The notes under the pieces: generated by a model
The model's database searches: none
Told to the model about the DNA's origin: nothing
Seen by the model: the letters and a program-made list of their open reading frames with translations, nothing else
Made by a program: the position numbers and the translations under genes
In this document: positions 26,232 through 28,647 of the stretch, piece after piece
Position numbering within the stretch: position 1 is the first letter of the stretch
Layout: each line of letters opens with the position of its first letter
IMG/VR virus record: IMGVR_UViG_2526164668_000029
Location: 1-38,213 of that record
Source: a virus
Taxonomy: Duplodnaviria > Heunggongvirae > Uroviricota > Caudoviricetes
Direction: 5' to 3' (one strand)
DNA: 38,213 nucleotides

Positions 26232-28647
26232 TTAATACAGGTTCCGCCACTGATCATCTTCCTGCAAACGCTGGTTCCGATAGAAGATACGCAGGCCTGC
26301 TCCTGACGGAATACTGCCGCCGCGAAGGAGTAAATCGACCTCTTTCTCGCTGCCATCAAATCCTCTGGACTTCAGCTCATACACGAGCTGCAGTCGCTGA
26401 TGGTCTGTAATTCGCTGTTTGTAGTCTTTACGCCGTTTCGGTTTCACCAGGCGTAACCTTGCTGCCAGTTCCCGGCGCTCTTTTTTGCTCATACTGTGCA
26501 GGTAATCGTGCAACTCCTTGTCATCCATGCTGGTAATGTCCGTTCTGGGGTCCCCATCAGCTGATTTATCTTTCTCCTGTTGGTTCAAATTTTCAGCAAG
26601 GGGACAGTTATTGCCACGAGTCCAAGGGGCGCAAGCGCCCTGGTCGGCTGCCGCCTCCTGAACGTCAACGGCTTTACGAACCATTTTCCACTTCACTGCA
26701 TGAGTGCAGATCTTGCCCTCTGCAATGGGTGACCAGATGCCATAAATACGAATGCCGTGATCGCCATAGGCGGTCGGCTCTTCGTTGATTTCATAAGCGG
26801 TTCTGATGAGGTGATATTTACGGGGAACCAGTACGCCGCCCTGCTTCATGATGTAGGTGGCAAAACAACCAGCATCAGCAGCAGCCAGAATGGCATCAAG
26901 ACGCGGGTTATCCAGTACCGGCGCACCTGCATTTTTTGTCCCCCTGTTGCCTTGCCGCCTGACCAGCCAACAATCGCAGTTCACGGTAAGCCTGACGCCC
27001 CGGAATGCCAAAGAAGCGGAATTGCTGAACACGATGCAGAGACGCCCAGGCATTCACGTATTCAGCGTTATCACGCAGAGATTTACCCGTTTCCTTGCTG
27101 ATCTCGCCAGCCAGACCACGACCGTCAATGTTCTTACTGATATATTTCGCGATGTAGCTTGTCGGCGTTCCTTTGCGCGGGTTAATCAACTCAGACTTAA
27201 AGCGCGGCCCAGTGTTATTGCCCAGCTCCTCGCGGTCTTCACGGATGGCAAACTTACGCAGTAATGCAGTGATGGCACGGCGGTCTTTTTTGCGCATGAA
27301 ACACAACAGGTGCCAGTGAACTGTGCCATCATGATGCGGCTCAGCCACCCGCACGCCATACCAGCGCAACCCGGCTTTGTGCATCGCCTTACGAAATGCA
27401 GCAAACATGCCGACCAGATAATCGCTGCTTTGTCTTACCGTCGCGTTTGTCCAGGTCGGGTTTGGTCTGCCGTTATTTAGCGTGGAATGGAAACGCGACG
27501 GACAGGTGATAGTGTAGAAAACGGCGCAGTCACCGCGCATTTCCGCGATAAGCTCCAGACCTTTAACACAGGCCATCATCTCATTGCGGCGATGCGCAGG
27601 GTTGCTGCTGCTGGCGTTTACCACATCCTCCATGTCCAGCGTGTCGCCGTCTTCGTTCACCAGTTCATGAGAACGGAAAAACTCCAGCGACTTACGGCGC
27701 TGCTCACGTTTATGCATCACGGCTTCATAGCTGACATAAGGAGATGCTTTTTTGCTGACCAGGCAAACAGCGCGCAACTGCTCTTCCCGCCATTCGCAAC
27801 GCATCTTCCATAATTTCCGATACCACCAGTCGGCGCACAACATACGCGCCAGCGAACCCGGAATGAGTTCATAGGGCACGGGTTTACGGCGGTTTCTTTT
27901 CCGACGGAGTTGCTCAAACGCAGGTGGGATGACATCCAGACGCAGGGTTTCCGCTGCCACCTTTTCCCATGTCTTGCGGATTTCTTCTGGCTTAACGTCA
28001 TCGGTGGCATACAAATCACCACAAGCTGCATCAAGGCACATACTCATATGCGCAGCTACCAGCGTGGACAGGCGTTTCACCTGATCCTGACTCATTTCAG
28101 GCAGGATCAGCAGGCCGTCCAGCCCTTCATGGCTTGCCATAAAGCGAAAAGATGCAGATAGCTGACTGTCACGTACATGCTCCAGTCGTTCCAGACATGG
28201 CTTAATCGTCTCACGTAAATAGCGGGAATAAGCCTTTGGCCTGCCCAGGCTGCTGAAGTATTCAATACGTTGCATCAGCGGCTTGCTGATATGGGAAGGC
28301 TGGGCGTTGACGTCCGCCAGAATGACCATGTCTGAATTAAAACGCTGCTGCTCATGCGCCAGCTTTGCCCGGCTAATGAGCTTATCCTGCTCCATTTCGC
28401 GCTGGACAGGATCACGTGATTCATTAAAGAAATAACGCTCCCAGACCTGATCACTCAGTGCCTCGCGGCGCAACTGTTCCTGCTCGTTATCGGCAGCGTA
28501 CAGAGTGATCAGGTTTGAAAGCGTAGAAACCGGCGCAACTTCCGCCGGGTCCAGATAAGGGTTAATGGCCTTTTTCGGGCTGTTCCATGAGAATGCTGCG
28601 GCAGCCTCGTTAAAGCCGCAGCAGTTGTTCATATCGGCATGAGTCAT
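26232..28647 (-). pseudogene. A: replication initiation protein A (rolling-circle nickase), split into two frames
   Basis: 579-aa frame (26908-28647) carries the HUH-like ...[10 protein letters not shown]... and the tyrosine motif YIAKYISK; a 273-aa frame (26232-27053) continues the protein after a frame change near 26926-26945, where there are T6 and C5 runs. Confidence 0.75.

Follow-up and report, generated by a model that had tools for sequence, protein, structure and literature searches.

Is the replication gene of the prophage in E. coli DEC11A broken, or does it only appear so in the deposited sequence? The question is raised by a stretch of 38,213 nucleotides (the window), which comes from contig AIGV01000045.1 of the 2012 draft assembly GCA_000250115.2 and carries a P2/186-like, Elveevirus-type prophage that is integrated in ssrA and spans about 1061-34544. 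An earlier note on this DNA held that replication gene A is split over two frames, named a sequencing indel or a genuine mutation as the two candidate causes, and saw in the latter case a domesticated cargo carrier. The features on which the analysis turns are listed in Table 1.

Table 1. Positions in the window of gene A, its parts, the lesion and the sites needed for integration and replication
Feature	Position	Strand	Remarks
Gene A, P2 gpA-type HUH rolling-circle replication endonuclease	26232..28647	-	2416 nt; intact relatives 2415 nt (804 aa)
N-terminal ORF of gene A, 579 aa	26908..28647	-	From the ORF list
C-terminal ORF of gene A, 273 aa	26232..27053	-	From the ORF list; different frame from the 579-aa ORF
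gpA C-terminal continuation, native residues 571-804, out of frame	26232..26934	-	Includes conserved block 585-681
Lesion: homopolymer of 6 in gene A	26932..26937	-	T6 on the plus strand, A6 in the gene; close relatives all have 5
Homologue of the P2/186 origin nick site	26604..26624	-	TGGACTCGTGGCAATAACTGT (P2: CGGAGTCCTGTCAATAACTGT); rep_origin features of the P2 and 186 records
attL, 45-nt direct repeat at the 3' end of ssrA	1016..1060	+	tmRNA gene spans 698-1060
attR, second copy of the 45-nt repeat	34500..34544	+	100% identical (45/45)

Gene A and its extra base

A megablast search with positions 26100-28750 matched 1292 E. coli records and 71 phage records. The best match, in E. coli PSS-08-2, is 100.0% identical and one base shorter, and the region is annotated there as a single 2415-nt CDS for an 804-aa 'replication endonuclease' (WP_048983447.1); the equivalent ORF of phage Cartapus (CARTA_43) is described as 'replication endonuclease gpA, P2 GpA homolog'. 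When the window was searched with the intact protein by tblastn, residues 1-571 and 568-804 were recovered in two frames, with 100% and 99% identity, respectively. The 579-aa and 273-aa ORFs overlap at 26908-27053, and because both align end to end with the single 804-aa protein, with one extra base in 2416 nt, they are on this alignment the halves of one gene and no chance juxtaposition. The split reported in the earlier note is thus borne out both by the ORF list and by the 804-aa relatives.

The Pfam domain Phage_GPA (PF05840) is complete in the 579-aa product (residues 188-510, profile positions 1-321 of 321, E 3.5e-128). This frame had also been said to hold the nickase motifs, and they are found in it upstream of the break, namely the HUH motif H444-W-H446 and the tyrosine pair Y498/Y502 (YxxxY). 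All four residues are invariant in an alignment of the intact 804-aa protein with gpA of P2 (NP_046795.1, 761 aa) and gpA of 186 (NP_052289.1, 694 aa), where Y498/Y502 correspond to Y450/Y454 of P2, which we take to be the catalytic tyrosines. For the 273-aa ORF alone, Pfam gave no match. By its domain and motifs, gene A is an ordinary P2 gpA / Phage_GPA HUH initiator in an Elveevirus-type prophage; judged by the alignment it is a member of that family by descent but not an intact member in this record, in which one continuous ORF with the conserved C-terminal block is absent and the gene is split at codon 570 by +1 nt.

The position of the change is well defined. On the plus strand, the overlap of the two ORFs contains a run of six T's (26932-26937) and a run of five C's (26940-26944), and the frame switch had been placed near both, at 26926-26945; the T6 run does hold the indel and the C5 run does not. 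The coding strand of the window reads GAC AAA AAA TGC AGG ... GGA TAA where relatives read GAC AAA AAT GCA GGT. Consequently, the 579-aa ORF consists of native residues 1-570 and a 9-aa out-of-frame tail (KCRCAGTG plus stop). Removal of one base from the run gives an 804-aa ORF that is 100% identical to WP_048983447.1, longer than the roughly 760 aa expected in the earlier note, and the extra base in the homopolymer is the sole difference between the window gene (2416 nt) and the PSS-08-2 gene (2415 nt). By comparison with its relatives, therefore, the split of gene A is caused by one extra base, A6 instead of A5. The intact orthologues (Cartapus CARTA_43 and E. coli WP_048983447.1) are 99-100% identical to the window gene at the nucleotide level and have the same flanks, with Dam upstream and a 62-aa ORF and a DinI-like gene downstream, and integration in ssrA is common to the window prophage and the PSS-08-2 prophage; the orthologues, however, have A5 and a single 2415-nt ORF.

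When compared with P2 and 186 gpA, the protein here is only 31-33% identical and is longer; about 90 additional aa at its N terminus and a 14-aa linker at 571-584 are absent from P2 and 186. The earlier note had recommended this comparison for locating the indel, and it places the break, after codon 570, in that non-conserved linker. Common to all three are the full-length PF05840 match, the HUH motif, the YxxxY pair, the conserved C-terminal block, a homologous ori nick-site sequence within the 3' portion of the gene, and a gene position at the end of the early operon. Block 585-681, which follows directly after the linker, has 23.7% invariant columns among this protein, P2 and 186, compared with 23.2% for the catalytic Pfam domain. 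The nick-site homologue, a candidate origin inside the 3' part of gene A, is unique in the window; the frameshift is about 310 nt upstream of it and leaves its DNA unchanged. If genuine, the frameshift would leave the ori DNA and the nuclease core in place and remove a strongly constrained C-terminal domain; since the lost block is as conserved as the catalytic core, such a truncated gpA would probably be inactive. A sequence search of the PDB with gpA found no solved relative, and a literature search on the function of the gpA C-terminal part gave nothing usable.

Distribution of the frameshifted allele

The exact 579-aa protein is EHW89803.1 of DEC11A and occurs on one contig only, the source of the window. 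In contrast, the exact intact 804-aa protein occurs on 93 contigs, its cluster at 90% identity has 13,455 members, and a second index has it in 142 collection blocks. With an 81-nt probe that has the run at its centre, 1137 records from 1134 complete E. coli genomes were matched; no match reaches 99% identity, and therefore the A6T allele is present in none (0/1134) of the complete genomes carrying the region. In IMG/VR the A5T string has 7 exact matches and the 27-nt A6T string none; the latter is likewise without a match among the GTDB species representatives. A metagenome scan did not contain it either, but the in-frame control allele is absent there as well, and so that scan is uninformative. 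The frameshifted allele is a singleton of one draft assembly.

Among the relatives, the run has two in-frame variants, A5T (Lys-Asn) and A6G (Lys-Lys). Out-of-frame lengths were seen only in two early drafts, DEC11A and E. coli H591 (GCA_000176675.2; GL884434.1 3205-3215). In the latter the run is one base short, GAC AAA AAG CAG, and the gpA product (EGI46584.1, 617 aa) is annotated 'replication endonuclease from retron EC67'; of the 1148 complete genomes in which the region is present, none has this -1 allele. Both cases concern the same gene and the same A-run, both come from early drafts and both alleles are missing from finished genomes, but H591 shows -1 on the Lys-Lys (A6G) background whereas DEC11A shows +1 on the Lys-Asn (A5T) background.

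Condition of the remaining prophage

From position 1 to about 34547 the window matches PSS-08-2. There are 8 SNPs in the prophage (33.5 kb), and the gene A indel is the only one. The other prophage CDSs are all intact (45/45), with 99.3-100% amino-acid identity to the PSS-08-2 prophage, and these include the structural, lysis, integration and regulatory genes. An unrelated isolate, GCA_009900625.1, has 0 mismatches and 1 gap against window positions 16232-34544 (18,313 nt), and the prophage is 99% identical to the deposited phage genome records Cartapus and vB_EcoM-813R9. Because the allele is a singleton and identity to the unrelated isolate is 100% over 18.3 kb, any inactivation would have to be extremely recent and not fixed. 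At ssrA, OkiPb01675 has an empty site and C7/C3 carry a different prophage.

The window contains 171 homopolymer runs of at least 5 (57 of at least 6, and 15 of 7-8). All but one (170/171) are equal in length to those of the nearest finished relatives, and the exception is the run in gene A. The right flank (34540-38213) is identical and equal in length to the finished genomes C7 and C3. The agreement of the 170 other runs means that the DEC11A assembly is not visibly error-prone in general, as far as can be judged from this 38-kb window only; with regard to a single miscall the comparison is neutral.

Several other observations were made in the prophage. A 2-kb tail-fibre segment (9582-11588), which is flanked by 27-nt inverted repeats and accompanied by a recombinase gene (8963-9526), is inverted relative to the PSS-08-2 prophage. 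The inversion swaps the alternative C-terminal tail-fibre exon and assembly genes, and by this organization the segment looks like a Cin/Hin-type invertible host-range switch in its other orientation. A 469-aa 'hypothetical' gene (23918-25324, minus strand) lies between the portal and DinI-like genes, which is the old/tin position in P2; its product matches the PADLOC model PD-T7-1 for anti-phage defence (E 1.3e-196) and is without a Pfam domain. Between the gene A stop and the operon of the 62-aa and DinI-like genes there is a LexA-box-like palindrome (26122-26137; CTGTAAATATAAACAG on the gene strand), the only perfect one in the window. Its position is comparable with that of the p95/tum promoter of phage 186, and this analogy suggests that the prophage may be SOS-inducible. 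At the two prophage ends, a 343-aa ORF beside the integrase (33352-34380, plus strand), placed as cargo, has no family match, and a 160-aa ORF beside ogr (1184-1663, plus strand) has only weak matches (PDC-S48 with 4e-07, and BRCT below the Pfam cutoff).

Next to attR lies an older island. Its P4-type integrase (34710-35939, plus strand) has an internal TAA stop at 35040-35042, where a metagenomic relative has CAA. Because the same stop is also annotated in the finished genomes C7 and OkiPb01675, the integrase is, on this comparison, a genuine shared pseudogene, and the inserted P2-like prophage separates ssrA from the decayed island. The island cargo also includes a 582-aa 'response regulator receiver domain' protein (36465-38213, minus strand), the start codon of which coincides with the last bases of the window; its counterpart in relatives is paired with an upstream ATP-binding/HATPase protein.

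Miscall or mutation

The two causes named in the earlier note were the right pair. We favour a homopolymer miscall over a genuine private mutation, although the sequence alone cannot decide between them. The deposited DEC11A sequence has six A's where every relative has five; according to this explanation, gene A would only appear split, the run length would have been miscalled in the draft consensus, and the real gene would encode an intact 804-aa gpA. We consider it fairly probable that the indel arose in this way, from sequencing or assembly and not in the cell. The change is a single base inside a mononucleotide run, its reversal restores a protein of 804 aa that is 100% identical to that of relatives, and the counts of one contig for the frameshifted protein and 93 for the intact one point in the same direction, as does the opposite error (-1) at the same run in a second old draft, H591. 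Divergence is tiny, with no mismatch in the 18,313 nt compared with the unrelated isolate and 8 SNPs in 33.5 kb compared with PSS-08-2. In E. coli mutation spectra real indels are much rarer than substitutions, and so a real indel is a priori unlikely in that span. Flow-based reads are prone to miscount homopolymers. A frameshift of this kind nevertheless has the same sequence preference whether real or not, since homopolymers are hotspots for genuine slippage too. The restoration of one ORF by a single-base correction had been put forward as a sign of sequencing error; the one-base deletion does restore it, but this is not decisive because real slippage looks identical. DEC11A may have been sequenced on a flow-based platform: a same-year paper from the same sequencing centre and group (PMC3491183) used 454 Titanium and the Celera assembler. 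Against a miscall, the other 170 runs of at least 5, including the 15 runs of 7-8, are correct and the sole discrepancy falls in a short run; a miscall-prone assembly should show other homopolymer discrepancies, and there are none in the 38-kb window. Loss of prophage replication can also be selectively favoured.

The alternative, to which we give a substantial chance but one below even, is a genuine +1 slippage mutation of very recent date, confined to the DEC11A lineage or to its stock culture. In that case gpA would end at residue 570 with 9 aa of junk, keeping the HUH/Tyr nuclease core and losing block 585-681, and the prophage could probably still derepress and excise but would not start rolling-circle replication. 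P2-like phages need replication for the expression of their late genes, and for this reason no phage yield would be expected. The deposited sequence itself reads A6, the agreement of all other runs with finished genomes makes the assembly look accurate here, and the loss of a block as conserved as the catalytic domain makes inactivation plausible. Moreover, prophage-inactivating mutations are common, and the neighbouring island does hold a genuine pseudogene, the P4-type integrase with a stop shared by finished genomes. What weighs against a real mutation is that the allele is confined to one assembly and was found neither in the 1134 complete genomes nor in the other collections searched, that no decay accompanies it (45/45 other genes intact), that 0 SNPs over 18.3 kb from another isolate leave little time for a real indel, and that out-of-frame lengths occur only in the two early drafts.

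The remaining readings give the split a biological role. The cargo carrier of the earlier note, a long-domesticated prophage that is kept for its PD-T7-1 defence gene and Dam methylase and has deliberately lost replication, is very improbable. A defence gene does occupy the usual P2 cargo site (PD-T7-1, E 1.3e-196) and gene A is broken in the record, but this reading predicts several lesions with loss of lytic genes and an inactive allele shared by descent, whereas a single lesion is seen, in gene A, in one assembly only; neither the lytic modules nor the 45 other genes nor the ori are damaged, both att repeats are perfect and the prophage is 99% identical to deposited phage records (Cartapus and vB_EcoM-813R9). 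The claim of domestication is therefore unsupported, and long-term domestication was rejected on the single lesion and the lack of a shared inactive allele. Of all the readings, the one that seems to us hardest to credit is a functional split, by programmed +1 frameshifting, transcriptional slippage, a phase-variable switch or two separate working polypeptides. The occurrence of both +1 (DEC11A) and -1 (H591) lengths at the same run, and of the in-frame variants A5T and A6G, would fit it. However, both out-of-frame alleles are missing from over 1130 complete genomes, so that there is no maintained state; efficient polymerase slippage needs about 9 or more A's, and A6 is too short. Restoration of the frame would need +1, no stimulatory context is recognisable, and direct reading found no Shine-Dalgarno-like sequence upstream of the ATG of the C-terminal ORF (27053). 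A programmed frameshift, slippage and a split gene were rejected, given that each out-of-frame allele is confined to a single draft, that the A-run is short and that a Shine-Dalgarno sequence is lacking. We also regard it as very unlikely that the A-run in the linker is a hypermutable contingency site. Slips of +1 (DEC11A) and -1 (H591) would there turn replication off reversibly in a prophage that is otherwise intact, SOS-inducible and equipped for defence; a lysogen could retain PD-T7-1 while being spared lytic death, and a first step of domestication would be taken.

Homopolymer frameshifts, whether artefacts or pseudogenising, are routine, and there is neither novelty nor a new mechanism in either case; beyond annotation hygiene the importance is small. 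Caution is nevertheless called for where prophages from early draft assemblies are counted as 'defective' on the strength of one homopolymer frameshift. If the frameshift is an artefact, as we favour, EHW89803.1 and the downstream fragment should be annotated together as a single replication endonuclease of 804 aa, with the prophage of DEC11A counted as intact. If it is genuine, DEC11A would hold a freshly replication-dead P2/186-like prophage, a routine case of early prophage inactivation.
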